Positions 11,734-34,724 of a stretch of 64,000 bases of DNA are shown here, one piece after another. Every line of letters begins with the position of its first letter. Positions within the stretch are counted from its first letter, which is position 1. The stretch spans positions 32,001 to 96,000 of the IMG/VR virus record IMGVR_UViG_3300041964_000083. One strand, given 5' to 3'. Under the pieces are notes generated by a model. The model made no database searches and was not told the origin of the DNA. It saw nothing but the letters and a program-made list of their open reading frames with translations. Source of the DNA: a virus. Position numbers and translations under genes: made by a program.

Positions 11734-11795
11734 AATTGAATCAAAAATATATTGAAGCGACTTATACGATTAAGTTGGGGTTTCTCCTCAATTTT

Positions 11796-12224
11796 ATGCC
11801 CAAAACTCTATCTGAGCATTATAAAAGTTACGATCACGCAACATCCCAAAAAATGACTGAACACAACAAGTCTGGTGGAGATGTTCGCAAGCCCGTGCGG
11901 AAGGTCGGCAACGCATCAACGCAAGGTAAATATGATCGCGCAAAATTTAATCATCGCAAAGCTATGCAAATTCTCAAGCGTGGCGACCCGTTAACTGATA
12001 AAGATGGGATGCCAACTCCTGCGGCTATGCAATTTAAGCGATGGGCAGAGAAGGTTCCGAAAACAATGGAAGACGTAAAGGGAATACGCGATCGCGCCGA
12101 GAAACAAAAAGCCTCCTACAGTAAAAAACTAGGTAAGGGTGATTGTGGCGGAACGTGTGCTTGCAATAGCTGCTCTGGGCGTAGTGACGCTTATTTAGCT
12201 GGATTTTGGAGCGTGTCTCGATGA
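11796..12224 (+). CDS. Basic phage protein (DUF6321-like) ending in CGGTCACNSC-RSDAYLAGF
   Basis: KPV...PLTDKDGMPT...KRW pattern; shares the SDAY motif with the cargo family. Confidence 0.55.
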   Translation: MPKTLSEHYKSYDHATSQKMTEHNKSGGDVRKPVRKVGNASTQGKYDRAKFNHRKAMQILKRGDPLTDKDGMPTPAAMQFKRWAEKVPKTMEDVKGIRDRAEKQKASYSKKLGKGDCGGTCACNSCSGRSDAYLAGFWSVSR

Positions 12225-13399: not shown

Positions 13400-15062
13400 G
13401 CTTCATGTCGGCAAGTCTGACAAAATCGTGACTTCACAAAAACAGGCGGTCGTGATCGCGTTAAATCAATCGGGGTTATCCAATCGCAAAAAAAAGGCTC
13501 ATAGAAAAGATGCTGATAATGCTATTAATATCAGTCTTGCGCTCAAGCGAATTATTGGTTCGGTATATCGCGATGGTGTAGACGCAGTTCTTTCTTATGA
13601 TACGGATGCGACAGGTGGGATATCAGGGTTATTCCGTGATGGTCGTGAAGTATTTGATTACAGTATTGCCCCAACCGGACAAATCATGTATGTTGAAGTT
13701 GCTGATGCGAGACGGGATGCTTACCTAGAAGGGTTTTATCTGGCAGGGCGAGTACCTGATTGCAGCATTAGTAATACGTATACAAAATCAGTTTTAGAGA
13801 CAGAGCTAACACGAATAGATACTAAAAAATCACGCAAATGTAGTAGTGGTAAGTCTTGTGGCGGTAGTTGTATCGCTAAAGGTTTTAGGTGTGTTCAACA
13901 ACTTGGTCAAGGCGAACAACTTGCAGTTAAACGAATATCTCAAACTATAAAAGCCCAAAAAAGCAAAAAACAATCTCCGTTAGATACATTGAAACGTCAT
14001 GCACCAATTCTTGCTGGGATTGCAGGCGCAGGGTTGTTAGGTGCTGCGGCAGTAGGAGTCGCAATGGCAAACCAAGGCAAGCCATCTCCTACAACTACGC
14101 CTGTTAAACCTAAAGAGTATTCACCTACAACTCCTGCACAAAATCCGACATCACAACCCAAGCCACAAGCACCAGCAACAAAAAAACAATCCGGTGTAGC
14201 TGACCCGTGGGATGGACCAGAACCCGATCCTTGGGAAGGGCAAGTCACGCCAAGACCAGATACACCTCAACCTAAAACAACTCCCAAAATTACACCAGGC
14301 GCTACACCACAATTAGTACCATCACCACAACCAAAACCCCAAAACGAGGAATTTCTTCGGGAATCCACAGCTAGTGAGGCTGAAGCTGCTAAAAACACGT
14401 TACTTAATAAAAATACCGGATATAAACTTAATGAAGCTCTGGATATCCAAGGATTTGATAGCGATACAGCAAGCAAGCTAAACCATACTGTTAATCAAAT
14501 TCATAAAACAGTAAATATTCCTAATTTGTCCAAAATCCCTGTTCAGCCGTCTACGGATGGTAAAGACGACGGTAATTATTATTCTGCAACTTGTACTGAC
14601 GGTAAAACAGGTGCGTTTTTAGGACGAGTACCATTAAAGATTGAACTAGATCCAAACGGTAATCGCAAAGAATCAGCGCTTGTTCACGAAGTTGGACATT
14701 TTATTCACCATTCTGCAATTGGCGATCCTAAAGAAGGGTATAAGGGCAAAATAAAGCCTGAAATGCAAGAGTTATTTAATGCTGTAAACAAGACAAATGC
14801 TGTAAAAAAACTCGATAAGTTAGTACGTACTGCTCGAAACCAAGATATTCGTGAGCGGGCAAATTATCTCAACCAACCAGAAGAATTGTTTGCTCGTGCT
14901 TTTACTCAATACATTGCTAAAAAATCTGGTTCTAAGATATTACAAGTGCAAGTCAAGATGGGGCAAAAAGGCAAAGCCGTTGAATACTGGGATGATCGCG
15001 AATTTAGTCGTACTGTAGAACCTGCAATGGATAAATTTGCTAAAGATATGGGATGGAGATAA
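13320..15062 (+). CDS. Cys4-module protein with zincin metallopeptidase payload
   Basis: DUF6496-like N-terminus, shared domain A, Cys4 motif at 13839, TM, Pro-rich linker, HEVGH and EELFARAF. Confidence 0.75.
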   Translation: MPKTKKKPTLAQKKKVKTVMHRWKEGKLHVGKSDKIVTSQKQAVVIALNQSGLSNRKKKAHRKDADNAINISLALKRIIGSVYRDGVDAVLSYDTDATGGISGLFRDGREVFDYSIAPTGQIMYVEVADARRDAYLEGFYLAGRVPDCSISNTYTKSVLETELTRIDTKKSRKCSSGKSCGGSCIAKGFRCVQQLGQGEQLAVKRISQTIKAQKSKKQSPLDTLKRHAPILAGIAGAGLLGAAAVGVAMANQGKPSPTTTPVKPKEYSPTTPAQNPTSQPKPQAPATKKQSGVADPWDGPEPDPWEGQVTPRPDTPQPKTTPKITPGATPQLVPSPQPKPQNEEFLRESTASEAEAAKNTLLNKNTGYKLNEALDIQGFDSDTASKLNHTVNQIHKTVNIPNLSKIPVQPSTDGKDDGNYYSATCTDGKTGAFLGRVPLKIELDPNGNRKESALVHEVGHFIHHSAIGDPKEGYKGKIKPEMQELFNAVNKTNAVKKLDKLVRTARNQDIRERANYLNQPEELFARAFTQYIAKKSGSKILQVQVKMGQKGKAVEYWDDREFSRTVEPAMDKFAKDMGWR

Positions 15063-15312: not shown

Positions 15313-16203
15313 ATGACAAGTTCAGCTTACTATCAGAGTTTTGTTGAAACAACTAATAGGGTGAGACGCGATCGCATTAAAGAACGTACTGGTCGTGTGC
15401 GTTTTACAAAAGCAAAGTGCAAAAAAGGTAAGCCTTGTGGCGATATCTGCATACCTCAAAAAGCTAAATGTAATGAAGGAAATGTTCGCCCACCTAAATC
15501 ACAAGCAAATAGCATAGCCGCAAATGCTATTAGGGGTGCGGTGGCGGTAGCTGGTTTGGCTTTAGGGGCTAAAATGATTCAAGATATACAAAAAGAAGGC
15601 GAAGAAATAAAACAAGCTAAAGAAAAAGTAGCTGCTGCTGGCAAGTACAACGAAAATTTAAATAATTGGAATAAAAAATATGCAGGTAAACAATATACCG
15701 AGTTCACAACAGAAGAATGGGAACAAGCCCGTGATGAGTTTCAAAAGAATCGAGAAGAATTTAAGCGCAAAGCTGGCTTTGACCCAGATCCAGGATTTGA
15801 TGACCGATGGAAACAATCTGTAGGTTCAGGAAAACACAAACCAGATCCCGTCAAAAACGAACAAGGTAAAGCTTATTATGACGTGTTAGGTGTGCCTAAA
15901 AATGCGTCACCTCAACAAATCAAAGCGGCTTACCGCAAGCTTGCAGCACAGCTTCATCCGGATAATCGTGAAACAGGCAACCCAGATAAGTTCAGAGAAG
16001 CGACTGAAGCTTATGAAAAAGCTCAAGCACACAAAGGTTCTGCAAGAGGCAAAGGTAATCGCAAGGATAGCGTTTGGGACGACATTGAATCTGCTTATAA
16101 TGAGGCAATAGCACAACATCCAGCAATGCCCAGTAGCTACTGGTACAACTTTTCAACATACGACCCATACAACGCTTGGCGTAAGCCACTTGATTTGCTA
16201 TGA
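15313..16203 (+). CDS. Cys4-module protein with J-domain payload
   Basis: Cys4 at 15418, TM, YYDVLGV...AYRKLA..LHPD...EAYE. Confidence 0.8.
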
Positions 16204-16550
16204 ATAGTGCCGCTTATTACACCAGTTTTATTCAGACAACTGCTAGGGTAAGACGTGATCGTGCCTTACGTGCTAAACCCAAATGTAAACCCGGAAATAA
16301 ACCTTGTGGGCAACGCTGCATCCCACAAGAAGACATATGTCGTCAAAATAGCGCGGGTATGCGAGGAGCTATTCCTGCTGCACTAGCAGCTACGGCTGTC
16401 CTAGCAACAGCTGGAACTTTGTATGCTAAAAACAAGCAACGCCAAAAAAGTCAAACTGAAGATAAAGAACTTGACGAAGGATGGAACCGTCTAGGACATG
16501 AAAGTACTGAAATTTTGAGAAGAGTGCAAGGAAAAAAGAAAAGAAGCTAG
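16200..16550 (+). CDS. Minimal Cys4-module protein
   Basis: N-terminus paralogous to 15313; Cys4 at 16284; TM; short tail. Confidence 0.75.
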
Positions 16551-16568
16551 TTTTGAGTTATCTTTACA

Positions 16569-17318
16569 GTGCCAAAGCGACCAGAATATTTAAACCAACC
16601 ATTTCAGGAAGCAATTGATTACTTTAAAGACAAAGTACCTTTTCCAACGCAACGTGGGCAGAAAGTGCCTGAAGGTTTCCACGACCACGCTTTCACTATC
16701 ACAGGACTTACCAAAGGCAGTTTACTAGAAGATGCCAAGTGGCTTATTGAACGGGCAATGGAAGACGGTACAGGACTAGACGACTTCACCCGTCAATTTA
16801 ATCGCTTAATTGGGCGCAAGGGATGGCAACCTGGTGATCGCCGCATTCAAACTATTTTTGACACTAATATTCGTCGCAGTTATAGTGCAGGACGGCGTGA
16901 GCAAATGCTTGACCCCGACATAGCTGATCGTCGTCCGGGTTGGATGTGGATTCATAGGACGCCAGGGAAAGAAGAAGGTGGAACACCCAGACTACACCAC
17001 CAAGCGTTGCATCGCAAAGTATTTAGGAATACTGAGACATTTTGGGATAAAGCCTTTGCTCCCTGCGGATTTGGCTGTCGCTGTACTGTTATGACGTTAA
17101 GCGAGAAACAAATGGAACGCATGGGTGTTACGTATGAAACTCCACCTAATCCTAATACCATTGCAGAACCTGGGTTTAGGAGTGCCGCAGGTTCATCGCC
17201 TAAAGAATCGCGACAACAAATCCTAAAAGACGGATTAACGGGTCTTTCTCCTAGCATTAGAGAAGTGGTGGAAAAAGACCTTAGCGCCAAAGGAGTTTTG
17301 GACGATGGTAACGATTAG
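16569..17318 (+). CDS. Phage Mu F-like minor head protein (short form)
   Basis: PFQEAIDYF, AFTITG, RIQTIFDTNIRRSYSAGR, R.HH, FW....PCGFGCRC. Confidence 0.9.
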   Translation: MPKRPEYLNQPFQEAIDYFKDKVPFPTQRGQKVPEGFHDHAFTITGLTKGSLLEDAKWLIERAMEDGTGLDDFTRQFNRLIGRKGWQPGDRRIQTIFDTNIRRSYSAGRREQMLDPDIADRRPGWMWIHRTPGKEEGGTPRLHHQALHRKVFRNTETFWDKAFAPCGFGCRCTVMTLSEKQMERMGVTYETPPNPNTIAEPGFRSAAGSSPKESRQQILKDGLTGLSPSIREVVEKDLSAKGVLDDGND

Positions 17319-17760
17319 TGCTGCAATAAGCGATCGCGAACTCAAAGATAAACTTACCCAACTTCAGCAGGTTACAGCCGATTTAGGTAAACTCAAGCTT
17401 GTTGTAGGAACTCCTATCAAATACATGAAACAGCATCAGTTAGGTACAAATGGAATGACAAAACGAGAGTTTTTGGGGATTAGTCGAACTGATCGCCAAG
17501 AAATAATTGAAATTTTTGATGATGCTATAGCCGAGCCTGTACCAAGAGGTGCTGAAATTGCTTTACGTGAATGCGGTGAAACGTTACTCCTAAGTATAGA
17601 TACCCGTTGGGATAGAGAAATTGCGCCAGATGGTACACCTTGGAAGAAAAACACACCTTACACAAGAAGGTTAAAAAAAGCCAAAGGACGAATACTAAAA
17701 ACATTGCAATCTACAGGTCTAGCACGCGCAAGCATTAACTACCAAATCATTCGTGAGTAA
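17305..17760 (+). CDS. Mu gpG / phage virion morphogenesis-like protein with rearranged motif order
   Basis: VGT..Y..HQLG...REFLGIS and PDGTPW...LQSTG..SI motifs; directly after MuF. Confidence 0.75.
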   Translation: MVTISAAISDRELKDKLTQLQQVTADLGKLKLVVGTPIKYMKQHQLGTNGMTKREFLGISRTDRQEIIEIFDDAIAEPVPRGAEIALRECGETLLLSIDTRWDREIAPDGTPWKKNTPYTRRLKKAKGRILKTLQSTGLARASINYQIIRE

Positions 17761-18282
17761 GTCACAAAGAGCATCATCTAACTGCTTAAATTCCTCACAC
17801 TCTCGCAGTATTCGTGCGATCGCCCACACCTCAAGCAAATAAATTCGGACGAAGCCTGATTCAATTCGCCACAACAAAGCAGCGTCTATTCCTGTTCGTC
17901 TTGACAGTTCGTTTCTATTTATTCCAACGTTCAGTCTAGACTTGCAAATTAAAACACCTGTTTGTTTATGGATATCACGAGTTCCGTGATTTCCTTTGGG
18001 AAAATGTGTATCTAAAACTAATTTAAGCTGTGCAATTTCAGGTGAATACACACTAAACAGGCTAGCAATATCCTTGACTTCAAATAAATCTAATTTTCTG
18101 ATTCCATGTTCTATATATTCAACGCTAGTGCGATTTAGGTTAATTAATTCCCCTAGTTTTTCTTGCGTAATTATGTTTCGATGATTACGCCGACGCAGGT
18201 TATAGATAATTTTCCCCAATGCTTTATATGGGTTCACACCTAAATAGGATATATTTTTTTCTGAGATTTTACGCTGCATCAC
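17719..18282 (-). CDS. Tandem XRE HTH protein
   Basis: ITQEKLGELINLNRTSVEYIEHG and INRNELSRRTGIDAALLWRIESG. Confidence 0.8.
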   Translation of the reverse strand: MMQRKISEKNISYLGVNPYKALGKIIYNLRRRNHRNIITQEKLGELINLNRTSVEYIEHGIRKLDLFEVKDIASLFSVYSPEIAQLKLVLDTHFPKGNHGTRDIHKQTGVLICKSRLNVGINRNELSRRTGIDAALLWRIESGFVRIYLLEVWAIARILRECEEFKQLDDALCDLLTNDLVVNACAC

Positions 18283-18409
18283 AGTTCAACTACTAATACC
18301 CATCCTCACTTTAATTCGATAAAACCTGCTTAAGTGATGCAAAACTGAGTAGTTCCACCAATTTGCTTGTTGAAATCTTTAGTATTTAGCTAGCGATTTT
18401 ATAAGTATT

Positions 18410-19969
18410 TTGGTGGCTACACGCTACGACTCAGGCAAACTTCGTAAAGCTCATAAAACTGCCGAAGGCGCATTGTTTTCGGAAGCTATTTATGCGCGAG
18501 ATGGCGTTTTAGAGTATCGCCTTCCCAACGGTGGGACAAGGCGAGAACTTCGCTTACCAGAAACCAACTACGACGAGGAAACGCTGACTAGTTACGGCTC
18601 AAAACCTATAACGGTCGAGCATCCACCTGTTTTAGTGACAGCGGATAATGCAAAAACTTATCAAGTTGGAGCATCAGATGCTGAACCAATGTATGAACGT
18701 CGCTACGAAAAGGGTTTTGTTGGCGGCATTGTTCGTATTTGGCATAGCGATGGCGTGAATGCTGTTGAGTGCAATGGGAAGAAAGAAGTATCCATTGGTT
18801 ACACCTGTGACATTGAACCCGTTGGTGGCATCTACTACCCAAAAACAGGCACTTATGTTGTTACCGATGCTGCTCCAGATAAGGGTGGTGAACGATTTGA
18901 CGCCATTCAGCGCAACGTTCGCGTAAACCATATTGCACTTACTTCTAAAGGTCGTGCTGGTCCAGAAGTCTGCTTGCGAATTGATAGCGAAGACGATGAT
19001 GTTGCCATCCTTGCCAAACCGTTTGAATTTCGCAAAGACGAATATGTAATTCCTGATTCTCCTTTACCTACTACTAACTCACCCACAAAACGCATGGCTG
19101 TCATCCGTATCGACAACATGGATTTTTCTGATGTGCCGGAAACTGTTGCGGTACTGATGAACCAAAAACTCAACGCTCTTGTAGAGCTTCAATCTCGCAA
19201 AGACGCTTTAGAGATTCAATTTCAAGAGCGCGAAGAACAACTCGATGAATTGCGAGAACAAGTAGACGAAGTTGCCGACGAGCGCGATCGCGAACGTGGT
19301 AGGGCTGACGCTTTAGAAATTCAACTCGCTGAAGCTGAAAGTAGGCAAGATGCTGCGATGCCATACAAAGGCAAGAAAAAAGGCAAAGCTCCCATTGTTG
19401 AGGTTGACGAAGACGAAGATTTTGACCCAGATGATATCGACGAGCTGGGTGACGATGACGAAGCTGACGATGAGGACGATGACGAAGATATGGAACCTAC
19501 GCCAATACCAAAGAAAAAAGGGGGACGGAAGGATTCTGATTTTGTTGATGTTGACCCTCATCAGCTGTTTGTTGCTTACGTTGATGCCAACAAAATTGTC
19601 CCTGGTTTGATTTCTGAAGACAAACTTGATTCGTTTGCCACACCTACCGATGTTCGTCGGCTGGCTATAGAAACGCTTAATCCCGATATTGACTTAACAA
19701 ATCGGAGTGATGCCTATGTTGATGGGGTTTATGACTTTATCAAATCTCAAAAGCTTCAAACTACCGAACAGTACCCGGAGCAGCTAGAACGTAACGACAG
19801 TATTAACACTACTTCCTATATCGGTTCTCATACACCACCTAGCGAAATTCAAACTGCGATCGCGCAAGCTCGCTCAAATAGCACTCCTACTTCCCCGCTG
19901 CAAGGTGCAGCAGAAAAGCAACGCGACCTCTACATGAATTCTTGGAACAAACCCCTCGACTTGGTTTAA
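18410..19969 (+). CDS. DUF2213-family prohead protease/scaffold protein
   Basis: ARDGVLEY, PITVEHP, EVSIGY, QRNVRVNHIALTSKGRAG, followed by an acidic coiled-coil scaffold region. Confidence 0.88.
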   Translation: MVATRYDSGKLRKAHKTAEGALFSEAIYARDGVLEYRLPNGGTRRELRLPETNYDEETLTSYGSKPITVEHPPVLVTADNAKTYQVGASDAEPMYERRYEKGFVGGIVRIWHSDGVNAVECNGKKEVSIGYTCDIEPVGGIYYPKTGTYVVTDAAPDKGGERFDAIQRNVRVNHIALTSKGRAGPEVCLRIDSEDDDVAILAKPFEFRKDEYVIPDSPLPTTNSPTKRMAVIRIDNMDFSDVPETVAVLMNQKLNALVELQSRKDALEIQFQEREEQLDELREQVDEVADERDRERGRADALEIQLAEAESRQDAAMPYKGKKKGKAPIVEVDEDEDFDPDDIDELGDDDEADDEDDDEDMEPTPIPKKKGGRKDSDFVDVDPHQLFVAYVDANKIVPGLISEDKLDSFATPTDVRRLAIETLNPDIDLTNRSDAYVDGVYDFIKSQKLQTTEQYPEQLERNDSINTTSYIGSHTPPSEIQTAIAQARSNSTPTSPLQGAAEKQRDLYMNSWNKPLDLV

Positions 19970-19972
19970 ATT

Positions 19973-20848
19973 ATGGCTGAATTCTTTCCCACACATAACC
20001 CAGTCGGAGGGCAAACCGACTATCGCACTGATATGTTTGTTGCCTTACCCGGAATGCTTTCCGGTATGGGTAGCTCACGTATTCTCCCTCACGTTAATGA
20101 CGTTGGTGCTGTTGACACGTACACAATAACCACTGGCGCAGTTACAGCAAACACCGAATACAGCGCAATGATTCAAGGGCAACGCATCAGTTATATGTCA
20201 GATGCTGATCCGACTATTGCTGAAGTCATTACTGGAATCTACAACGAGATTAGGTTAAAACCTACGGTGTATCGTCTTGCCGACTTGACTAAAAACGATA
20301 CAACCAACACGCTTACACTAACTGGACGCATTCAAGGCGTACCGTTAAGCATTACGGGGCAAGGACTAACCGTTACCAAAGTGGTAACGGGTTCTAACCT
20401 ATGTGACGCATCTAATCTTGTCATTCCCTTCGGTCGTTTTGTTGGTCGAAAAACCGATTACAAACTCGACCCGCGTGAAGGTGTGAGTTCAGCAACATTG
20501 ATTGACTCGCTCACTGACGAAATCTTGGGCATCACCAAACGTACTCATCACACCGAACAAGTTGGGTATTTCCACTGCGCTCAAAGTGGATATATGTTCG
20601 GGGACACCATGAACGTCATGGAAGACACCGGAACGATTAAGGGTATCTGGACAGAGTGTGTTGAAGCTGATTTAAAGATTGGCGAGAAAGCCTATTGCGC
20701 GATCGCACCCGGTTTAAAAGGCAAGCTCACTCGCGACACTACGGGCAAAGACATTTCTGCAATGTGCCGAATTGTGGGAGCAACCGAACCTACGGTTGGC
20801 GGACTTTTCATGGCGTTATGCCAGTTCAACCGCTACGGAACTTGGTAG
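19973..20848 (+). CDS. Head decoration / minor capsid protein
   Basis: Lies between DUF2213 and the major capsid gene; PGM, IPFGRFV, G.IW motifs. Confidence 0.65.
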   Translation: MAEFFPTHNPVGGQTDYRTDMFVALPGMLSGMGSSRILPHVNDVGAVDTYTITTGAVTANTEYSAMIQGQRISYMSDADPTIAEVITGIYNEIRLKPTVYRLADLTKNDTTNTLTLTGRIQGVPLSITGQGLTVTKVVTGSNLCDASNLVIPFGRFVGRKTDYKLDPREGVSSATLIDSLTDEILGITKRTHHTEQVGYFHCAQSGYMFGDTMNVMEDTGTIKGIWTECVEADLKIGEKAYCAIAPGLKGKLTRDTTGKDISAMCRIVGATEPTVGGLFMALCQFNRYGTW

Positions 20849-20889: not shown

Positions 20890-21825
20890 ATGGCAATCAA
20901 ATCCTATCAAGCTGAACTTAGAACCGACTCTCCAGGCGTCATGGCATTTGCTCGTGACCTTGAGTACAAAGAAGCTAGGGTAATCGAGCAAGTTTATCCG
21001 GAGAAAAAAGCCGCCAACGGCTTGATGATTCAAATTGAAGAGGTCGAGATGCCGTGGGCGCTCTCCACCAGCTTCCGCATGACAGATGGAGTTGGTAGCT
21101 TCGAGCTAGCCGACGACTTCACCACCAACCTCCCATTCGTGGATATGGTGGCTACCGAATTCAAGAACGATGTTAAATCTTATCGTTCTGGCTACTACTA
21201 CTCCGAAAAAGAAGTAGCAGCTTTTAATCACTTAGGCTTACCTATTGATGAACAAAAGATTGCGCTAGTTCGTAAGGCTTATGTTCAAACACTCAATAGG
21301 CTAATACTGTTTGGCGATCGCAAGACGGGAATGCCGGGATTTGTTAACCATCCTGCGTTCTTGCGTTCAATCTCTCCCTATAAACTCGACGGTTCTGTAG
21401 GAAATGCCAACCAGCTTATCTCCGCACTTACATTTGGGATGAGTGCTGTATCTGACTCTACAATCGACGCGCTCGAATGTGACACCATCTGGCTTCCACG
21501 TAAACAGTTTACGTTTATGAACTCCCAAGCCCGGATGGATGGTGCTCTGGAAAAAACTGTACTCAAGTTCTTTAAGGAGAACAACACTAACCCAAACGTT
21601 CAGATCGGCTGGATGCGGGAATTAGAAGGTTGTGGACCTAACGGGGAAGACGTAGCACTCTTCTACTCTAGAAACCCCATGTATGTAAAGGCGCGTATTA
21701 CTGACCCCTTCCGCTTCCGTCAGCTGATGGTCTACCCGTTCATGCTGTATCGCCCTGTGGCGTTTGATTGGAACGGCATCCAAGTTTACAACCCCTACTC
21801 CGTTCATGTCATGATCGGAGTTTAA
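20890..21825 (+). CDS. Major capsid protein (DUF2184 family, HK97 fold)
   Basis: LE......YP, YSEKEVAA, NRLILFGD..GMPGFVNHP, ELEGCG, G.QVYNP; canonical position. Confidence 0.88.
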   Translation: MAIKSYQAELRTDSPGVMAFARDLEYKEARVIEQVYPEKKAANGLMIQIEEVEMPWALSTSFRMTDGVGSFELADDFTTNLPFVDMVATEFKNDVKSYRSGYYYSEKEVAAFNHLGLPIDEQKIALVRKAYVQTLNRLILFGDRKTGMPGFVNHPAFLRSISPYKLDGSVGNANQLISALTFGMSAVSDSTIDALECDTIWLPRKQFTFMNSQARMDGALEKTVLKFFKENNTNPNVQIGWMRELEGCGPNGEDVALFYSRNPMYVKARITDPFRFRQLMVYPFMLYRPVAFDWNGIQVYNPYSVHVMIGV

Positions 21826-23667: not shown

Positions 23668-23872
23668 CGACTCACACCTTAAGAAATCGCTATTTAGTGA
23701 CATCTGCACCAAATGCAAGCACTTAGACTTAGAATCTGCCAAAACAGATAAGAAAATCTGTACAGCATTCCCCGATGGTATCCCATTTGAAATATGGTCG
23801 GGTAAGAATGACCACAAGAAACCCTATCCAGGTGATCGCGGTATTCAATTTAAGCTCAAAACCATTAAATGA
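23657..23872 (+). CDS. Small Cys/His protein (CxxC...CxAFPDGIP...H..PYPGD.GIQF)
   Basis: Coupled to both neighbours; potential metal ligands. Confidence 0.7.
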
Positions 23873-25311
23873 ACGCAGCAACTCTCCCTAAACTTAGCCC
23901 TCAGCAACGCATTCGATTAATGCTCAAGCGTGTTATCGAGAGCGGATTTACGTCAGGGATTAATGGGGTGTTGAGTTTTGATTTGGAAGAAGATGGAAAG
24001 ATAACGGGAAAGTTTTTAGAGAATCGTCAGGTTTATGACTTCGCGATTACACCTAACAATATTTTGAGTTATGTAGAATCAAAAGTTAGGAGTGATGCTT
24101 ACCTTATTGGCTACTACGGAGATAGCGGTTTATTAAAATATGGAGCAAGACTAGACACAAGTAGTAGCAAGCGTCGTTGTGTAGCAGGTAAGCCATGCGG
24201 AAAGACTTGTATTACCAAAGGCAAGAAGTGTTCGATTAAGCTTGGCAATGTCGCAGCTAAAACAATGGGTGCAATTCGCACTCAATTAAAATCTGCACCG
24301 CCTGACACAAATAAGCAAGATGTTGCCAAAAAATATAATGTAACTCCATTAATAGCAGCCGGTGCTATAGCAGGTGCTGCTGTAATTGGGATGTCCGCAG
24401 CTAGCTATATGGCATTTCGTTCTGAATATCGAGAAGGATTTAAGGAGTCTGCCGAAAAGGTAAAAACAGCTGTTAAAGAGAAGCTTGACAAGGATTCTGA
24501 TACTACACCGCTTAAGACAGGCTTGAATGGTGACAAAGACATTGATGCTGATGAAATAACACTTGTTGTTGGTGGTTTTGCTGGACAAGATGGAAAAAAT
24601 TCTGAAAAATGGGCAAAACAATTACTAGGTAATGATGGATTATTTGATAATCATTATGTAGAGCCTATTGAAAATAAAGAATTTGATGTAGATTTTCAAG
24701 AACATATTGAAAACACTAAAAAAGGTCAGTTTAGTCCTGGAACAATTACAGGAAATAATAAAATTTTAGCAATGGAAATGTCTTGGGCAAAGATGCTCAA
24801 TACAGCTATTGGTAAAAAACATAACCCTGTTTCAGTGAACCTTGCAACCCAAGCTTATTATTATCACCAAAAATATCCAGATAAACCTATTAACTTGATG
24901 GGTTATTCGGCGGGTGGGATGGTTACACACGAAGCTGCGGAGATATTAAAAGAGTTGGGTGTTACTAAAAATGTAAAAACCGCTAATTTTGGTAGCCCTT
25001 ATTGGGGGTTGACAGAAAAAGTTGGAGATTCAATTACATTTGCATCTGATAACGATCAGAATATGACAGGAATGCCCATTCGCGATCGCGTAGAAGTAAG
25101 TTCAGTACATAATCATTTTGATTATTTAAAAAACCCTACGGTTAGAAAACAACTCAAAGGATTCTTGGGTGGTAAAGCCGTATCTGGTGAAAAAATTAGC
25201 AAAGAGCAAGAAGAGCGCATTAAAAAAGCTCAGTCACGACGGGAAAAACGTAATCCTGAAGAATTGAAGCGAAAATTAGAAGAGCGCAATAGACGGAGAA
25301 AACAAAACTAA
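23869..25311 (+). CDS. Cys4-module protein with alpha/beta-hydrolase payload
   Basis: Domain A, Cys4 at 24178, TM, VVGGFAG, GYSAGG, FGSP, HNH. Confidence 0.8.
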
Positions 25312-27569
25312 TGGTTGCAACTTCAGTTTCTACACCGTCTAGACAACAGACCGCATTAGCTTTAAAAAAGATTATTGAGTCTTCATTTACTAGCGGTATA
25401 GATGCTGTACTTAGTTTTGCGTTGGATGAAGACAATACGATTACAGGTAAATTTTTAGAAAATCGTCAAGTTTATACTTTTGAGATATCTCCAAAAAACA
25501 GAATTCGGTATGTTGAAGCACAAGCAAAAAGCGATGCATATCTAGCGGGTTTTGTTGAAGTTATGCCTATCCGCTTAGACAAAATGAACGGAGGTAAGAA
25601 GAAGCGCTGTATTGTTGGTAAAGCGTGTGGTGGTACTTGTATAGCAAAAGGAAAGGTGTGCGATCGCGAACTATCACCTAAAGCTGCCCAATTAAGTAAC
25701 GCAGTGCGAAAGGTGTTAGGTGGCAGCACAACTAAACCACCCGAACAGAAATTTCCAAAGATTAATCCAGGTCTTGTCGGTGCAGCTGTATTTGCAGCTG
25801 GGGTATTAGGTGTGCCTGTTGCTGGATATTTAGCAACAAGAGCAACATACCGCGCAGGCTTTAGTGAATCTGCGGAGATTGCTAAAAAAGAAGCTGAAAA
25901 ATTAGCAACTCAAAATTATAAATGGACTAAACGAGACAAAAAGCTTATTGCAGCTTCAAAGTTTAAAGGCGAAGGTGTTCCTGAACCTAAAAGTGAAGGA
26001 GAGCCAGCAATTCCAGATGTACTCTACGGTGGAACTCCTAATGAACGGTATTTTTTAGGGGAAGTCGGAAAACGCTACGGCAAAGAACCAAGCGAAATGT
26101 ACAAAAAAGCTAAGCAAATTACGTTAGTTGCTAATGGGTTTGCCGGAGAAGACAACACGGACTCAGGCGTCAGTGTTTCAGGCGATTTGATGGGTAACGA
26201 TGGTCTATTTGACGATCACCACGTTGTTCCTATTGATGCGTCTGGTTTTTCCCCTAATTTCATGAAAGGTGAAGAAATTGCCAAAAACGTTTTAGAAAAA
26301 GTATTTAAAGAAGGTCGTAACCCCGTAGCCGTCAGAATGGCGTCACACGCCTACGCATTTAGTAAAAAACATCCAGATGTACCTATTAACCTAATTGGTT
26401 ATTCTGGTGCTGGAATGGCAACCCATGAGGCACAGGAAATATTAAAACAAATGGGTGTTAAGGTACGTGTTGCTAACTTTGGCTCACCTTACGGGGGGTT
26501 AACTGAAAAAGTAGGTGACTCGGTAACATTTAACAGCCCATCAGATTTTGTTACTCGTCATACACCTGTTCGAGACGAAATTAATGTTCCTCATGTAGAT
26601 GGACATTTTAAATATTTATTAGATAGCAAAGTCAGAGGAAAACTTCGGGATTACTTTGACGGCAAGAAAATTAAAGGTGAGCCAACATCTCTTGAGCAAG
26701 AAAGACACGCTCAAAATGTACTGAAAAAAGAGACATCGGCGTTTGCTGAAAAACAAGCTCGGTTAAGAGAAATTGACCGTAAGCGGAAAGAGCGTGGAGC
26801 AAAACGTAGTAAAAAAAAACTAGATAGCATCAAACCAAATTGTTCACCTAAAAGTAAATTGTGTGGCACTCGCTGTGTTCCTAAAGAATACAATTGCAAA
26901 CAAACTAAACAAAAACCATTCAATGCAACAAATGCTGTTTCTATAGGTGTTGGAATAGCTGCTACTGTGGGACTTGGGGCAGCTATAGCCATTCCGGCAT
27001 CGATGGCTCTACATACAGAAATTGCAAAAAATCGTGCTGAAACTGTAAAACGCAACGTTGAAAAAGAAGAAGATGCAATTAAAGACTCACCTGTTGAGCA
27101 TTTTGTAATTATTAATCCCAAAACAGGAAAGACAATAGCAAAAGGTTCTAGCAACGAAGCAACAAGAGTGGATATTCCTACTGAAGCTATGGGTAAAATG
27201 AAGGGCGCTATTTTTACCCATAATCATCCCAAAGCTCTTAATTTTCCAGAATCTCATCCTCAAGGTAAAGGTACTAGTTTTTCTGAAGCTGATATTCGTA
27301 TTTCTTGTCAAATGAATGTTAAAGAGATGCGTGCTGTGAGCCGAAAATATCGTCATAGCTTAAGCGTAGGTGCTAAGGGTTGGGGGGATTGGGATAATCA
27401 AGTAAAACCTATATACGACAAACACGACGAACAACTTCTAAAGGAATGTCAAGATCATATACTTTCTCGCAAATACAAAGCCGCAGAGCTAAACGCAATT
27501 TATCACCACGAACTCAATAAGCGTGTAGCTAAAGATATGGGATGGACTTACATACGAACACCTATTTAA
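25311..27569 (+). CDS. Two-module Cys4 protein: alpha/beta-hydrolase plus JAB/MPN-like domain
   Basis: Cys4 at 25608 and 26841, each followed by a TM; GYSGAG; E...THNHP...SFSEAD. Confidence 0.8.
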   Translation: MVATSVSTPSRQQTALALKKIIESSFTSGIDAVLSFALDEDNTITGKFLENRQVYTFEISPKNRIRYVEAQAKSDAYLAGFVEVMPIRLDKMNGGKKKRCIVGKACGGTCIAKGKVCDRELSPKAAQLSNAVRKVLGGSTTKPPEQKFPKINPGLVGAAVFAAGVLGVPVAGYLATRATYRAGFSESAEIAKKEAEKLATQNYKWTKRDKKLIAASKFKGEGVPEPKSEGEPAIPDVLYGGTPNERYFLGEVGKRYGKEPSEMYKKAKQITLVANGFAGEDNTDSGVSVSGDLMGNDGLFDDHHVVPIDASGFSPNFMKGEEIAKNVLEKVFKEGRNPVAVRMASHAYAFSKKHPDVPINLIGYSGAGMATHEAQEILKQMGVKVRVANFGSPYGGLTEKVGDSVTFNSPSDFVTRHTPVRDEINVPHVDGHFKYLLDSKVRGKLRDYFDGKKIKGEPTSLEQERHAQNVLKKETSAFAEKQARLREIDRKRKERGAKRSKKKLDSIKPNCSPKSKLCGTRCVPKEYNCKQTKQKPFNATNAVSIGVGIAATVGLGAAIAIPASMALHTEIAKNRAETVKRNVEKEEDAIKDSPVEHFVIINPKTGKTIAKGSSNEATRVDIPTEAMGKMKGAIFTHNHPKALNFPESHPQGKGTSFSEADIRISCQMNVKEMRAVSRKYRHSLSVGAKGWGDWDNQVKPIYDKHDEQLLKECQDHILSRKYKAAELNAIYHHELNKRVAKDMGWTYIRTPI

Positions 27570-29043: not shown

Positions 29044-30075
29044 ATGAACGACAGAGAAATTACACAACCAATTGCTGAAGCAATTACGCTAACATTTGAT
29101 GCTCCTGTTGATGCAGTATTAACCGCGAACCTAGATTCTGATGGTGTTTTGTTTGGTCAAATAATGTCCGGGGGAAACTTTTACTCATACATTGCCGATT
29201 CCGACACAATCACTACTTATTATCATCCCGAAGAAACTGAGTATCTAAACGAATACGCTCATGCCGTACTCGACAACATAGGTATTCATACTGATGCTTG
29301 GGAGACATACGATTATGCATTGGGGTTTTTCCGTGTTGATGCACAGATGAGATGCAAACCAGGAAACAAACCCTGTGGTAGGCGTTGTATCCCTCAGCAA
29401 ATGAAATGTAGAAGTGCAATGGGCGGTGGGGCGCAAGCAAAAATGCGACAAGGGCGTGCTAACTTACGCGCTCCTGGCGCAGGTGCAATTGCCGCTGGCG
29501 TTGTTGGTGCTGCGGCATTAGCTGCGGGTGGTGCTGCGGCTTATCAAAACAGAGAAGAGATTGCTAAAGGTGCAAAAAAAATTGGGCGACAGGTACAAAA
29601 AACCGCACTTGTAGCAAAGCGGGAAGTAGAAGGGAAAGCCGCAGAACTTGCTAGCAATGTCAACAAAGGTGTAGAGGTGGCTAAAGAAAACATTCAACAA
29701 GCTGCAAAGAAAACGGGTCAAGCGGCACGAATAGCTGGCAAGAAAGCGACACGCGCTGTAGAACGTACAAAAAAAGAAGTCGATAAAAATTACAAAGAAA
29801 CAAAAAAAGAAGTCGATAAGAAATACCATGAAACTCGTAAAGCGGCTATAAGAACAGCTAAAGAAGTAGGAGTCGCTGGCAAAAGACTTCAAAAACAAGC
29901 TGAACGGAAAGTAGCTGAAGTTACAAAAGGTGCTGAAAATACAGGTAAGAAGATTCAACAACAAGCACGCAAAAGCAAGAAGCGTGGTGAACGTTATGCT
30001 GCTGACCCAGAAAGAGTACAGAAAGTGGGTAAACGCTTAGGCGATCGCTGGGCAAGAAATATGGGAGCAAAATAA
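29044..30075 (+). CDS. Cys4-module protein with basic LEA-like helical tail
   Basis: Paralog of 28416; Cys4 at 29353; TM; TKKEVDK repeats. Confidence 0.75.
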   Translation: MNDREITQPIAEAITLTFDAPVDAVLTANLDSDGVLFGQIMSGGNFYSYIADSDTITTYYHPEETEYLNEYAHAVLDNIGIHTDAWETYDYALGFFRVDAQMRCKPGNKPCGRRCIPQQMKCRSAMGGGAQAKMRQGRANLRAPGAGAIAAGVVGAAALAAGGAAAYQNREEIAKGAKKIGRQVQKTALVAKREVEGKAAELASNVNKGVEVAKENIQQAAKKTGQAARIAGKKATRAVERTKKEVDKNYKETKKEVDKKYHETRKAAIRTAKEVGVAGKRLQKQAERKVAEVTKGAENTGKKIQQQARKSKKRGERYAADPERVQKVGKRLGDRWARNMGAK

Positions 30076-33000
30076 TGATTGCTGTTCGCTATGATCGTGC
30101 CAAACCTAATTGCAAAAAAGGTAAGCCTTGCGGTAGCGTTTGCATTCCGCAAAAAGCTAAATGTCGTAAAGAATCTCCACAAGAAACTAATACAGGTGGG
30201 GATGGCGCAATCAAAGCAGCGGGCTGGGCAGTTGCGGCTGCCGCAACTGCCGCATTAATTGGTGTGCCTGTAGCCACTTACGCTGGTGTGCGATCGCGTT
30301 ATCGAGAAGGGTTTAAAGAATCTGCCAAAATGGCACAGTCAATGGCAAAGGATATAGAACCTATCAATGTAAAGGAAAAACAGCACTCTGTTGTATTTTG
30401 TGTTGGTGGAATGGACTATGGGCATGAAAACACTAATCCTAATATTAGTGGCAGAATAATTTCTTTAGCCGTTAATAAGTCTTTATCCCAAAAAGATAAA
30501 GGACTAAAGACAATTCCTATTTCTACACAAGGTAGTAATTTAGATAAGAAAGAGAAACCAGAAGGTATTCATCAATTTGTTGCTGATGGATTTAAGCGAA
30601 CTGTTTACAAAAATGTGGTAGAGCAAGGTAGAAATAAAGCTGCGGTAAGGCTTGCTGCACAGGCGATCGCGTATCACGATAAATACCCAGATAAGCAAAT
30701 CGTCATGTTTGGTACTTCTATGGGTGGGATGATTGTCAATGAAGCACAGGAGATACTAAAACAAGCCAAACCGTCTATGAAGAGCAAGCTTAAGTCAATG
30801 ACGGTTGGAACTCCTTATTTTGGGCTAACTGAGCCTTGGGGAGAAACGACAGAGATTGCTGCACACGAAGACAAATTTACAACCGTTTTACCGACGCGAT
30901 CAAAGACTAAGTTATTTAATCTCAAGCACGTAAACACTAAATCTACGGATGTGCTTCATGGACATTTGTTAAGTGATTATTTTCAGTCAGATGAGGTGAA
31001 AAAACATTTATCAGATTTTATTTATAAAGATGTTAAAACAACTAAAAATACCAAAAAAGACTCAGCTAACGAACCTAAATGTCGGACAGGACAACCATGT
31101 GGGGAGATTTGCATACCTAAAACACATAAATGCAGAATAGGTTCTTATTCTCCTGCAAAAAAAGCAAAAGTTGAAGCTGTAAAAAGAAAACGACGACAAG
31201 TCGCATTAATGAAATTTTCTGCCGCAATAGGCGTACTTGTGGCATTTGAAGCTGCGGTTGTTGCCACGAATTACGCAATTGACAGAAGGAATGAGCAAAC
31301 AATAGCTGAAGAAAAAGAGGTTAAAGACGATTTTCAATCAGATGTCGACAATTTTGTAGATTTTCGTTCCGAAATGAGAGATAAGGCTCGATCATGGGGT
31401 GTTGGTCGAGGATATACGGATATTGAGCTTGTAGATGATTGGTATTGGGGCTTTCCTCCTACAGGGTATATGCAAGAACCTATTCAAAGTGAAAACCAAG
31501 AACTAGAACAAGTTAAAAAATCACTACAAGACATGGAAAAGAAGTGGCGCGATCGCGCTAACGTTGAGCATTTTAACAATATCCCTGATACAGCGCATAG
31601 CAAGAATAGAAAAAAAGCTACTACAGATTCTATTGCTGTCACCAATCCACATTATCAAAAACTTATATTTCAATTAAAAACTATTCTAAATCGTGTTTAT
31701 ACAGATGGTATTGATCATTTTATAAAAGTAGAAGTTGATAAGGCTAATACTATAACTGGGTTATTCAGAGATGGTACAAAAATATTAGAGTTTACGATTA
31801 AAGGTAACGACATTACTTATAAAAAAGCAGGATTTAAAAACAAAAAAGACTCAACTTATTATGATTCTTTGGCATTAGAGTTAACGTTACGTAGTGATGC
31901 GATCAAGAAAAAAGATAAATGCGTAAAGGGTATATCTTGTGGGGCAGCTTGTGTTGCTTCTAATAAATCATGTCGATTGAAAGCTAACGCGATCGCGTCA
32001 TTTGGGGAACTGGCTCAACTAAGAACTACGGCTGCTCAAGTTGGTGGTGGAACTGCACCAACACCCGTAGCCGATCAAGACACATATGAAACGAACCCAG
32101 ATACTGGACAACCCTACACTATTCGAGAGCTAAAGAAAAAAGCATCAGAAAAAGGAGTATATCGTTACTCTGAAATGACAAGTGATCAGCTTAAAGAGGC
32201 GTTAAGGGCAACAGATAAAGACCCTGACCAACAAGAAAGGCTAGGGAAAACTCTAACTAGAGAGCGATCACTTACTGGGCGTGCCCAACGCGCTGGTTTA
32301 ATTGGCAAAACTAAACCTGAAAAGCAATTTGTTCAATGGACGCGGGAATGGAACAAGATTTCTAAGTTTGCTGATTATGTCGGCAAAGCGCCACTAGGTT
32401 GGGGGATGACAGCAACTGCTGCATTCTTGGCGGGTACAGCAGTTCGTACTTATGAGCAAGCTAAAGACCACTATCGACAAGGTTTGAATGACTCAGCACG
32501 AGCCGCTGAAGCGCGTGCCGTTGGAATGGATACGAGTCGCGTTAGCAAAGAAAATATTGCATTTGTGGTTGGCGGTTTTAATGGGTTAGGGCATTCATCT
32601 CAGAAGATGCGCGAACTATTGGAAGAAGACCCTCAGCTAACTGATAAAAATCATTATGTGCAATTTGATTTAAAAGAAACCGATGTTCCTCCTTACGACG
32701 GTAACAAGCGTAACCCCGATGGTTCTTATAGTTTGGGTTATTTAGGGTATGTTGCAACTAGAGGTGTAGGGCAATTTGCTAAAGATTTGACCAGACAGCG
32801 TAACGATGATGCTGTAGAACTAGCCGCCCAAATTTATGCTCATGCGGTACGACGCAATGCGACCAATTATCAGATGGCGCATAAAGACAAAAGCTTCAAC
32901 ATCGTGTCGCATTCGGTAGGTGGCGAAGTCGTGAACCAAGCAATGGATATCCTATCCAAAATGAAAGCGGTAGGGGGGAAGAGTTCACCTACAGGGAAGG

Positions 33001-34724
33001 AGGTACTAGAGCGAGTTAATATTGTTCACCTATCCGCTCCCGATACGGGGTTTACTGAAAACCTTCCAGGTAACTACCGCAATATTACTTCTGGGCAAGA
33101 CCCTTTTTCTTGGATGCCCAAACGTCGAGAAAAGTGGGTAAGTACGGTTAAAGGGAATGAGCCTGAAGATTATATTCGTGACCCAGAGGTGCGAGAACAG
33201 ATTCGTCAAGGGTTTGGCTATTACGATATCAGTGCTAAACAACGGGAACGTAGCGAGAAGACGCGATCGCGCAAGAAGAAAGAACCGAGTGCAGCTAAAT
33301 CAAAACCGAAGCCTAAACCTAAAGCAAAATCTCAAGGCACAGAACAGAAAACAGATGCTTACTGGGAAGCATTTAATGCGGTTCGCTTAGATGCAGCTCG
33401 AAAAAAAGCTAAATGTAAAACAGGTAAACCTTGTAAGGATGTCTGCATACCCAAAAACGCTATTTGCCGCGATGACGTGATTAAACGGGTAAAAATAGGT
33501 GCGGAAATTACAGGTAAAGGGTTATTGGCTGCTGCTGGTGTAGGACTAGCGGTAGGTGCTGCTAGTATTTTGTCACCTGGAGGTGGACTCCCCATGCCAG
33601 GGAAACCACCCAAAATTGATATTAAAGCACCTGTAGTTGATAAACAAGCTCAGAAAGAAAGATCAGAGCAAATACGTAAACAAGGCGAAGAAATTGGGCA
33701 GCAGGTTAAAGAAGGGTTAGAGAAAACACGACAGCGTTTTGAAGATGAGCGCAAAGCAAGACGAGAAGAGGAAAAAGTGGAACGGGAACGCAAAAAAACC
33801 GAAAGTAGAGCGCAACGACAAAAGGAACAAGAAGAAGCTTGGAACAAAATTCAAGCTAAAAGAAGACAAGCCATTGCCACCAACAAACAGGTAATTGATG
33901 AAAATTTCGATGATTGGGTTGATCGAGCTTCAGCTAATACACTGGATTTAACACCCGAAGAACGCGCAAAAAAAAGTGAAGCTGGCGATCGTTTCCTTAA
34001 TGGAAAAGGTATGGGGGCTATCGCTGGTGGTAGTTATAGCGAATTTTTGTTACTACAAAACCATGTAGCTAAATCTAGTCCAGAAGAAGCTTACAAAGCG
34101 TGGAAGCAAGAAATGGGGTTAACCAAAGAACAACTACAAGAAAAAGTTATTTCTAGGTATGCTCCTGATGACGAACTTGAAATGCAGCACGATGATATTG
34201 ACAAGGGAGAAGGCACAAAAGAAGAAAAAACGTTTTCTAAGCAGCTTGCTACAACACGTCACAACAACAAAGTAGCAGCATACAAAAAAATTGCCGAAAA
34301 AATGGCTAATGATGTTGACTTAGTAAACCCAAGGCAACGCAAGTCCGAATTTGAAATGTCAGCAAAAATGGCAGGTGCAGCTAAAGATTTAGTTGGTGGA
34401 ATGAATAAGACATTGCGGGATATTGAAGACTGGGATATAGGCAAAGATTTTGATAAGGTATTTAACCAATTTAAAGATAGATTTAAATCTAACTTTGGTG
34501 AAGGTAATACCCGATCACGTAGTACCAAAACATTTGCTGGTAATGATTGGTGGGATGCACTAGAAGTTAAGCAAGCTTCTACGGAACCAGAAGTTAAACA
34601 AGCATTTAAGAAAAAAGCTAGACAATACCATCCAGATATTAATAAAGCGCCAGAAGCTGAAGAACAAATGAAAGAAATTGTCAACGCTTACGAACTTTGG
34701 CAGCACCATAACAAGCGCAAATAG
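30075..34724 (+). CDS. Four-module Cys4 polyprotein (hydrolase, unknown, hydrolase, J-domain)
   Basis: Cys4 at 30111, 31080, 31920, 33414; GTSMGG; SHSVGG; C-terminal YHPD J-domain. Confidence 0.8.
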   Translation: MIAVRYDRAKPNCKKGKPCGSVCIPQKAKCRKESPQETNTGGDGAIKAAGWAVAAAATAALIGVPVATYAGVRSRYREGFKESAKMAQSMAKDIEPINVKEKQHSVVFCVGGMDYGHENTNPNISGRIISLAVNKSLSQKDKGLKTIPISTQGSNLDKKEKPEGIHQFVADGFKRTVYKNVVEQGRNKAAVRLAAQAIAYHDKYPDKQIVMFGTSMGGMIVNEAQEILKQAKPSMKSKLKSMTVGTPYFGLTEPWGETTEIAAHEDKFTTVLPTRSKTKLFNLKHVNTKSTDVLHGHLLSDYFQSDEVKKHLSDFIYKDVKTTKNTKKDSANEPKCRTGQPCGEICIPKTHKCRIGSYSPAKKAKVEAVKRKRRQVALMKFSAAIGVLVAFEAAVVATNYAIDRRNEQTIAEEKEVKDDFQSDVDNFVDFRSEMRDKARSWGVGRGYTDIELVDDWYWGFPPTGYMQEPIQSENQELEQVKKSLQDMEKKWRDRANVEHFNNIPDTAHSKNRKKATTDSIAVTNPHYQKLIFQLKTILNRVYTDGIDHFIKVEVDKANTITGLFRDGTKILEFTIKGNDITYKKAGFKNKKDSTYYDSLALELTLRSDAIKKKDKCVKGISCGAACVASNKSCRLKANAIASFGELAQLRTTAAQVGGGTAPTPVADQDTYETNPDTGQPYTIRELKKKASEKGVYRYSEMTSDQLKEALRATDKDPDQQERLGKTLTRERSLTGRAQRAGLIGKTKPEKQFVQWTREWNKISKFADYVGKAPLGWGMTATAAFLAGTAVRTYEQAKDHYRQGLNDSARAAEARAVGMDTSRVSKENIAFVVGGFNGLGHSSQKMRELLEEDPQLTDKNHYVQFDLKETDVPPYDGNKRNPDGSYSLGYLGYVATRGVGQFAKDLTRQRNDDAVELAAQIYAHAVRRNATNYQMAHKDKSFNIVSHSVGGEVVNQAMDILSKMKAVGGKSSPTGKEVLERVNIVHLSAPDTGFTENLPGNYRNITSGQDPFSWMPKRREKWVSTVKGNEPEDYIRDPEVREQIRQGFGYYDISAKQRERSEKTRSRKKKEPSAAKSKPKPKPKAKSQGTEQKTDAYWEAFNAVRLDAARKKAKCKTGKPCKDVCIPKNAICRDDVIKRVKIGAEITGKGLLAAAGVGLAVGAASILSPGGGLPMPGKPPKIDIKAPVVDKQAQKERSEQIRKQGEEIGQQVKEGLEKTRQRFEDERKARREEEKVERERKKTESRAQRQKEQEEAWNKIQAKRRQAIATNKQVIDENFDDWVDRASANTLDLTPEERAKKSEAGDRFLNGKGMGAIAGGSYSEFLLLQNHVAKSSPEEAYKAWKQEMGLTKEQLQEKVISRYAPDDELEMQHDDIDKGEGTKEEKTFSKQLATTRHNNKVAAYKKIAEKMANDVDLVNPRQRKSEFEMSAKMAGAAKDLVGGMNKTLRDIEDWDIGKDFDKVFNQFKDRFKSNFGEGNTRSRSTKTFAGNDWWDALEVKQASTEPEVKQAFKKKARQYHPDINKAPEAEEQMKEIVNAYELWQHHNKRK

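Follow-up and report, generated by a model that had tools for sequence, protein, structure and literature searches.

The principle of terminal docking peptides is already known. The scaffold of phage 80alpha and the CpmB protein of SaPI1 share a C-terminal helix-and-hook, containing the RIIK motif, which binds the capsid protein (PMC5644958). In herpesviruses UL26 and UL26.5 have their C-terminal ~25 residues in common; these attach to the major capsid protein and are cleaved off at the maturation site (PMC8539031). IPI-III and Alt of T4 carry a capsid targeting sequence and DarB of P1 an N-terminal signal; these short peptides are thought to load the injected proteins into the procapsid and to be cut off later by a gp21-type protease at an acidic residue in the P1 position (PMC9024508). 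In the Pbunavirus Pa193, gp24, which belongs to the Pfam family PF09979, is a putative scaffold, a fragment of which was located under the five-fold vertices of the capsid, and an unassigned peptide of ~16 residues was found under the hexons (PMC11456595). Here we describe a head gene module in which a DUF2213 (PF09979) scaffold and an otherwise unrelated J-domain protein end in the same type of peptide. The module is in a 64,000 bp stretch (the window, bases 32001-96000) of the 153,952 bp IMG/VR record IMGVR_UViG_3300041964_000083, a 98% complete genome of an uncultured cyanophage-like virus. What is new is the W-K-x-P-L tail found throughout the family, its natural transfer to a J-domain protein, and a cargo module that has not been annotated before.

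The two proteins are encoded within 5 kb of each other (coordinates are those of the window; features are on the plus strand unless stated otherwise). The 519 amino acid scaffold (18410-19969) ends in QRDLYMNSWNKPLDLV, as read from the translation of 19871-19969, and the last residues of this sequence, MNSWNKPLDLV (19934-19966), constitute the proposed procapsid-docking peptide. The J-domain protein (15313-16203, 296 amino acids) was recognized by Pfam DnaJ with an E value of 7.7e-15 (55.2 bits, cut-off 27.8), and its J domain (15874-16017) has the HPD signature in the form LHPDN, which places it in PF00226. It consists of a truncated copy of the cargo module described below (DAY-like helix, RVRRD, Cys4 knuckle), a hydrophobic helix, the J domain, an RKDS sequence and the scaffold-type tail (16168-16200), which matches the scaffold tail when the two are anchored at their ends. 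An earlier reading of this DNA (the original prediction) had claimed that cargo proteins imitate the scaffold by sharing both its C-terminal tail and its SDAY helix. Both tails had been read correctly, as the translations of 19871-19969 and 16108-16203 agree with them.

To compare the tails, the last 11 residues of all 616 reading frames of at least 60 amino acids in the 154 kb genome were aligned end to end, which gave 189,420 pairs. The top pair was scaffold/J (BLOSUM62 score 44), followed by a pair of true paralogues that scored 30, and the highest score obtained in 200 composition-preserving shuffles was 38. BLASTP of the C-terminal 60-65 residues aligned only the last 10, of which seven were identical and nine similar (E 2e-4 for this single comparison). 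An AIAQ stretch had been considered as an upstream extension of the similarity and was rejected, since the BLASTP alignment is confined to those 10 residues. The K, P, L and D residues shared by the two tails are encoded by codons differing in the third position; the match has thus been held at the peptide level and does not reflect a recent duplication of DNA.

Conservation of the scaffold tail was assessed in 120 DUF2213 homologues collected from a set of 5.8 billion proteins. The pattern [WYFH]-x-x-P-L was present within the last 26 residues of 115 homologues, usually at a distance of four residues from the terminus. As a consensus we obtained (D/E)-A-W-K-R-P-L-T-A-T-K, with W in 91, P in 113 and L in 114 of the 120 sequences. 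The original prediction had named lack of conservation among DUF2213 homologues as grounds for abandoning it; as the tail is kept at the extreme C-terminus in 115 of 120, the prediction stands on this point. An Asp after P-L, with three residues to the end, was limited to the clade of the window, and the J protein carries precisely this rare PLDL variant. Among cultured phages, Planktothrix phage PaV-LD, the closest cultured relative of this virus, was the only one found to have this C-terminal scaffold domain, and its scaffold ends in DAYKQPLTIGKTRTGFTR; no cultured member was found in the large AWKRPLTATK clade.

The tail persists in relatives of the J protein whose upstream sequences have diverged. 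The J protein P0125 (92% identical) ends in AWRKPLDLL, and that of locus L002, where the scaffold is 79-81% identical to the window's, is a two-unit protein of 682 amino acids ending in AWCKPLEL. The J protein of the window matched the profile of the cargo module at positions 69-137 only; positions 1-68, comprising the N-terminal helix and the beta-sheet half, are missing. The apparent loss of this half, which most paralogues keep, fits a loading role.

A different explanation is that the J tail is functionless, and either remained from an ancient recombination event involving the 3' end of the scaffold gene or resembles the scaffold tail by chance. It would agree with the confinement of the tail to one lineage, with a similarity of only ~11 residues and with the free shuffling of cargo genes in this phage group. 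However, the match exceeded every one of the 200 genome-wide shuffles, it is end-anchored in both proteins, its synonymous codons differ, it reproduces the most conserved W, P and L of the family together with the clade-specific D-L ending, and it has been kept where the upstream sequence has diverged. We therefore regard a functionless tail as very improbable.

The reading we prefer, to which we assign a probability of roughly 55% on the basis of the sequences, the structural model and analogy with the systems described above, is that the tail is a procapsid-docking peptide, which was borrowed by one J-domain cargo protein and is released by cleavage after the Asp of RKDS. Through its terminal [DEN]-[AS]-W-x-[KRQ]-P-L-x-x-x peptide the scaffold would dock to the procapsid from the inside, the major capsid protein being the most likely partner. 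The J protein, carrying its own phage's version of the peptide (PLDL followed by L or V), would take the same docking site and become enclosed alongside the scaffold. The protease would then cut the J protein between D and S of RKDS, 44 residues from the end, freeing it inside the head, and would cut the scaffold likewise in RNDS, 55 residues from its end, as well as in RIDS and RKDS. Once free, the J protein, which has a Cys knuckle and a hydrophobic helix, would be ejected together with the DNA and interact with DnaK of the host. A broader version, in which the DUF2213 family as a whole has a herpesvirus-like terminal W-K-x-P-L docking peptide and an upstream Asp-specific release site, and in which at least one lineage has turned this peptide into a portable cargo-loading tag, is more tentative, and we consider it somewhat less than an even bet.

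Several observations weigh against a docking role of the borrowed tail. In the 154 kb genome no ORF (open reading frame) besides the scaffold and the one J protein has the tail, and this includes ~12 further cargo genes. It was absent from the cargo proteins of the related loci L001, L003, L007-L010, L016 and L017; the scaffold of L001 is 91% identical to that of the window and has the same tail, but L001 has a different cargo set and no tailed cargo. Among the 150 best of 818 cargo proteins bearing the module, none carried the tail (0.28 expected by chance). When the tail segments of distant homologues were made into a profile, the J protein scored only 8.8 bits (E 0.12, rank 3 of 924 ORFs), and the DUF2213 proteins of phage PB1 and the T1-like phage SRT8 have no such tail, which shows that it is not universal. 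Evidence from co-variation is thin, as just three closely related J variants have the tail, and the tail may have a partner different from the major capsid protein. For the C-terminal region of the J protein, a single relative was found in the set of 5.8 billion proteins. The claim that cargo proteins share the scaffold tail thus holds for one J protein, in three variants, and fails for the other ORFs, the eight related loci and the 150 module-bearing proteins. Taking into account that the tail was seen on a single cargo protein and was absent from the others checked, it is an exceptional gain by one accessory protein and not a general cargo-loading signal.

The protein from which the tail is borrowed combines two functions. 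Pfam recognized DUF2213/Pa193_gp24 (PF09979) in residues 16-189 with 86.2 bits (cut-off 22), and the 519 amino acid protein matched PHROG 530, annotated as head maturation protease, with an E value of 2.7e-64. An AlphaFold2 model built on 45 homologues shows a confident beta-rich DUF2213 protease domain (residues 1-180) followed by a disordered linker, a 70-residue helix or coiled coil (244-316), an acidic disordered stretch, a confident four-helix domain (383-453), further disorder, and finally a helix (496-509) and the tail as a non-helical hook. When the modelled protease domain was submitted to Foldseek, T4 gp21 (5jbl) was matched with probability 1.00 (E 5e-4, template modelling score by target 0.47-0.56), and the protease of Epstein-Barr virus was a weaker match. 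H71, S128 and H174, which are candidates for a His-Ser-His set of catalytic residues, are invariant in the 45 scaffold sequences. A sequence search of the PDB with the scaffold returned coiled-coil noise only and no solved relative. As judged from the model, a protease resembling T4 gp21 and assemblin is joined to a coiled-coil scaffold in the DUF2213 protein, a layout similar to that of herpesvirus UL26.

Candidate cleavage sites are abundant in this protein: [RK]-x-D-[SA] was observed 10 times, compared with 0.86 expected. Three of the sites, RIDS (residue 190; 18977-18988), RKDS (residue 373; 19526-19537) and RNDS (residue 461; 19790-19801), the last being the candidate maturation site 55 residues before the C-terminus, are in segments between domains where the pLDDT (predicted local distance difference test) of the model is below 50. 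In the alignment of 38 scaffold sequences, including that of the window, conservation is seen in the columns of the R-x-D-[SA] that precedes the tail and of a K-x-D-S located where the C-terminal domain begins. The corresponding candidate in the J protein is the RKDS at 16060-16071, 44 residues before the C-terminus, which is RKDS in L002 and HKDS in P0125. The major capsid protein (20890-21825; PF09950, E 1.4e-24), the presumed receptor of the tail, has RTDS near its start (20920-20931), and each of the seven capsid proteins examined, those of the window and of six relatives including PaV-LD, has R-x-D among its first 7-14 residues. Pattern scans of viral and genome contigs for close relatives of the capsid protein yielded no confirmed match. 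The capsid model of Pa193 begins at residue 66; in the related Pbunavirus PB1, the equivalent point comes directly after AMD-S. The enrichment of the sites, their location in predicted disorder and the N-termini of the capsid proteins suggest a rule of Asp-specific cleavage for DUF2213 proteases.

These sites lend some weight to another interpretation, according to which the shared elements are sites of cleavage or recognition by the DUF2213 protease ([RK]-x-D-[SA], sometimes extended to [SA]-Y-hydrophobic-x-G-aromatic) and do not serve in docking, and the tail binds the protease domain or another part of the core, e.g. the portal, in place of the capsid protein. Such sites are more frequent than expected and are found in stretches predicted to be disordered, RSDA itself fits [RK]-x-D-[SA], and in 302 copies of the cargo module an R-x-D-[AS] sequence is nearly invariant before each Cys4 unit, with R in 213 of 244 and D in 241 of 255 copies having a residue at the column (~87% and ~95%). 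This interpretation, however, does not account for a peptide that 115 of 120 homologues keep at their very C-terminus, with 44-56 residues separating it from the nearest upstream site, and in the known precedents conserved C-termini of scaffolds and proteases are contacts with the capsid protein. We consider it unlikely.

The second element of the original prediction was the SDAY helix. In the scaffold, RSDAYVDGVY (19703-19732) is where the last helix (434-453) of the C-terminal domain begins, as seen in the AlphaFold2 model and the alignment. The sequence SDAY(I/V)xG(I/V)YD is conserved among the scaffold homologues and also occurs in SRT8. The pattern x-DAY-x-x-[GAE]-[FVY] was found seven times in 12,637 residues, compared with 0.04 expected from shuffles. 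One of the seven is the scaffold motif at 19703, and the other six are paralogous copies of a single cargo module: RSDAYLIGY (24088-24114) in the gene 23869-25311, and the equivalent motifs at 12180-12206, 13710-13736, 25527-25553, 33348-33374 and 50349-50375. The weaker echoes SAYYQSF, AAYYTSF, RSRAYRQGF, DYACGF and DYALGF align to the same module. All the DAY strings that had been listed do exist, but the positions given for them were starts of genes and not of motifs.

The module has ~140 residues and comprises a helix, four strands, the DAY helix, R-x-D-[AS], a basic stretch, CxxGxxCGxxCIxxxxxC and a hydrophobic helix. In the AlphaFold2 model of the reference copy, at the N-terminus of its gene product (23869-24294, alignment A1; mean pLDDT 82.5), a helix (11-26) and four strands are followed by the DAY helix (76-85, pLDDT ~60), a disordered R-x-D region (92-98), the Cys knuckle and a helix; the hydrophobic segment, which comes after the modelled part, was seen in the sequences. 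Further copies are in the genes starting at 13320, 25311, 28416, 29044, 30075 (several copies) and 50085. A profile made from 16 copies detected 818 representative proteins at E ≤1e-3, and 237 at E ≤1e-10, in a library of 1.84 billion proteins; the module is often present in multiple copies, up to 10 per protein. Across the 302 copies the four Cys residues are close to invariant, and the Y and G of the DAY helix occur in ~60%. Pfam did not match the module in these proteins, and for its fold nothing convincing was found in the PDB or the ESM Atlas. Because the DAY helix belongs to this conserved N-terminal module, its recurrence among the cargo proteins is a matter of paralogy and not of mimicry.

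The model originally put forward, which treats the W-x-K-P-L tail and the SDAY helix alike as capsid-targeting mimics of the scaffold and has all DAY cargo docking at the site of the scaffold's RSDAY helix, has to be weighed against these results. S-D-A-Y-hydrophobic-x-G-aromatic is conserved both in the scaffold and in the cargo families, and hhalign aligned exactly this segment. The alignment of the cargo profile to the scaffold extends from RSDAY to RNDS, with the order helix, linker, R-x-D being the same as in the cargo. There are also cargo proteins with DAY-type C-terminal ends: the product of 11736-12224 ends in RSDAYLAGFWSVSR, those of L017:4868-7054 and L017:16947-19373 end in KSDSYWTAFQDFLNG and KKDAYEIAFRQTLLRRQGV, one of these two L017 ends having the sequence KKDAYEIAFRQ, and two proteins of L016 end in (R/S)xDSIWAWGF. 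The likeness is nevertheless short and weak. The hhalign match covered 16 columns with a probability of 3% (P 0.013), and when the cargo-module profile was run over the 924 ORFs, the scaffold was the best match outside the family, with 5 bits and an E value of 1.8. In both AlphaFold2 models the motif is a helix within or beside a folded domain and not a free terminal peptide. The two sides do not co-vary: the scaffolds of L007 and L008 have no Tyr there (SDAAVEG and NADAVEG), whereas the cargo there keeps RSDSYWAGL and RGDAYLIGW. The scaffold motif is present in SRT8 too, where no cargo-module search was made, and C-terminal DAY motifs were not enriched among the 150 module-bearing proteins (1 observed, 1.5 expected). 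Mimicry of the scaffold by the SDAY helix was thus not borne out, and a model with two docking signals seems to us quite unlikely. Because RSDA fits [RK]-x-D-[SA], the likeness between scaffold and cargo is explained by a shared protease site no less well than by a mimicked docking helix, and it may reflect this consensus or chance rather than a second docking signal.

Two adjacent cargo genes of L016 (L016:4198-5166 and L016:5173-6090), one of them encoding a J domain, have a C-terminal peptide in common: their products end in RRDSIWAWGFDT and TSDSIWAWGF, and the shared peptide directly follows an x-D-S site. The scaffold tail of L016 is AWKRPLTATK, which is of a different clade.

The head module in which these genes are located occupies 11.7-52 kb of the window on the plus strand. 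A cement protein gene (19973-20848) is situated between the DUF2213 scaffold and the PF09950 capsid genes, and the order scaffold/protease, cement protein, PF09950 capsid was also found in L001, L003, L007-L009, L016, L017 and PaV-LD. The module also contains a MuF gene (16569-17318, 42.8 bits), a gene for a Phage_tail_S protein on the same strand and ~12 genes with InPase, LPD1, J-domain and alpha/beta-hydrolase-like parts, as well as ORFs of 1549 and 3821 amino acids. InPase was matched at 59 bits and LPD1 at 25.4 bits, slightly below its Pfam cut-off of 27. MuF, InPase and LPD1, which are signature domains of polyvalent or packaged effectors, are present in head-module genes; their context is that of the phage polyvalent proteins described by Iyer et al. 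2017 (PMC5512222). A domain assigned by PHROG as 'minor head protein and DNA pilot' is encoded near the J-protein gene. In the 3821 amino acid ORF (34725-46190), which comes after the 1549 amino acid polyprotein, no copy of the cargo module was detected by profile search. Directly upstream of the scaffold gene there is a helix-turn-helix gene on the minus strand (17719-18282), and genes of this type occupy the equivalent place in L001, L002, L003, L004, L007 and L009; the Pfam matches were weak or faint.

Cargo genes are shuffled freely among the relatives of this phage group, and even close relatives such as the virus of L001, with its 91% identical scaffold, and that of the window have swapped cargo sets. 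Compared with the window (17760-18400), L001 (1556-9329) has four extra cargo genes between the Phage_tail_S and the scaffold genes, encoding a NUDIX, an unnamed, a His_Phos_1 and an ART-like protein. No J protein was found in the 10 kb fetched upstream in L001, and a J gene is present on a 5 kb contig from the same sample. J domains recur in head-module cargo: there are two in the window (genes 15313-16203 and 30075-34724), both with HPD, and one each in L008, L009, L016 and L017.

How proteins are chosen to be packed into the head and injected is known for only a few model phages, such as T4 and P1. A tail present across hundreds of DUF2213 proteins, with a copy on one cargo protein, offers a simple and testable rule of loading in a group that has almost no cultured phages, and the data also establish a cargo module that is widespread (818 representative proteins) and was not matched by Pfam. 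Should the docking role of the tail be confirmed, it would offer a natural means of loading foreign proteins into these capsids, and it would represent the phage counterpart of the encapsulin loading peptides, serving an injected J-domain effector.

In encapsulins the cargo enzymes carry a cargo-loading peptide at the C-terminus, by which they bind to the inside of an HK97-fold shell. These systems lack both DNA and a protease step, their peptide motif differs from the tail described here, and the window system is not a member of that family. The scaffold of the window and gp24 of Pa193 belong to the same Pfam family and are encoded in the same order of scaffold, cement and capsid genes, but the protein of PB1, a relative of Pa193, has neither the W-x-K-P-L tail nor the R-x-D sites. 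The signals of T4 and P1 follow a similar logic but are N-terminal, and that of T4 targets the scaffold core, whereas the tail of the window is C-terminal and copies the scaffold's own end; with its tail at the C-terminus, the J protein does not have a T4-type targeting signal, i.e. an N-terminal leader removed by the prohead protease. With herpesvirus UL26 the window shares an assemblin-fold protease joined to a scaffold whose C-terminal peptide is conserved; a few dozen residues ahead of this peptide, in a linker predicted to be disordered, there is a candidate cleavage site, which is conserved too. The herpesvirus tail, however, is common to genes nested in one frame, whereas the second tail of the window is on an unrelated gene. 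The herpesvirus maturation site is Ala/Ser, and the likely P1 residue of the DUF2213 sites in the window is, in contrast, Asp. In 80alpha and CpmB the binding of the element to the capsid has been demonstrated, whereas the tail of the window is known here from its sequence and a single-chain model. The motif is W-x-K-P-L in place of RIIK, and the second protein is the phage's own J protein and not a size-redirecting scaffold of a satellite. As in 80alpha and CpmB, two otherwise unrelated proteins carry the same terminal peptide, and the AlphaFold2 model of the scaffold ends in a helix and a hook.

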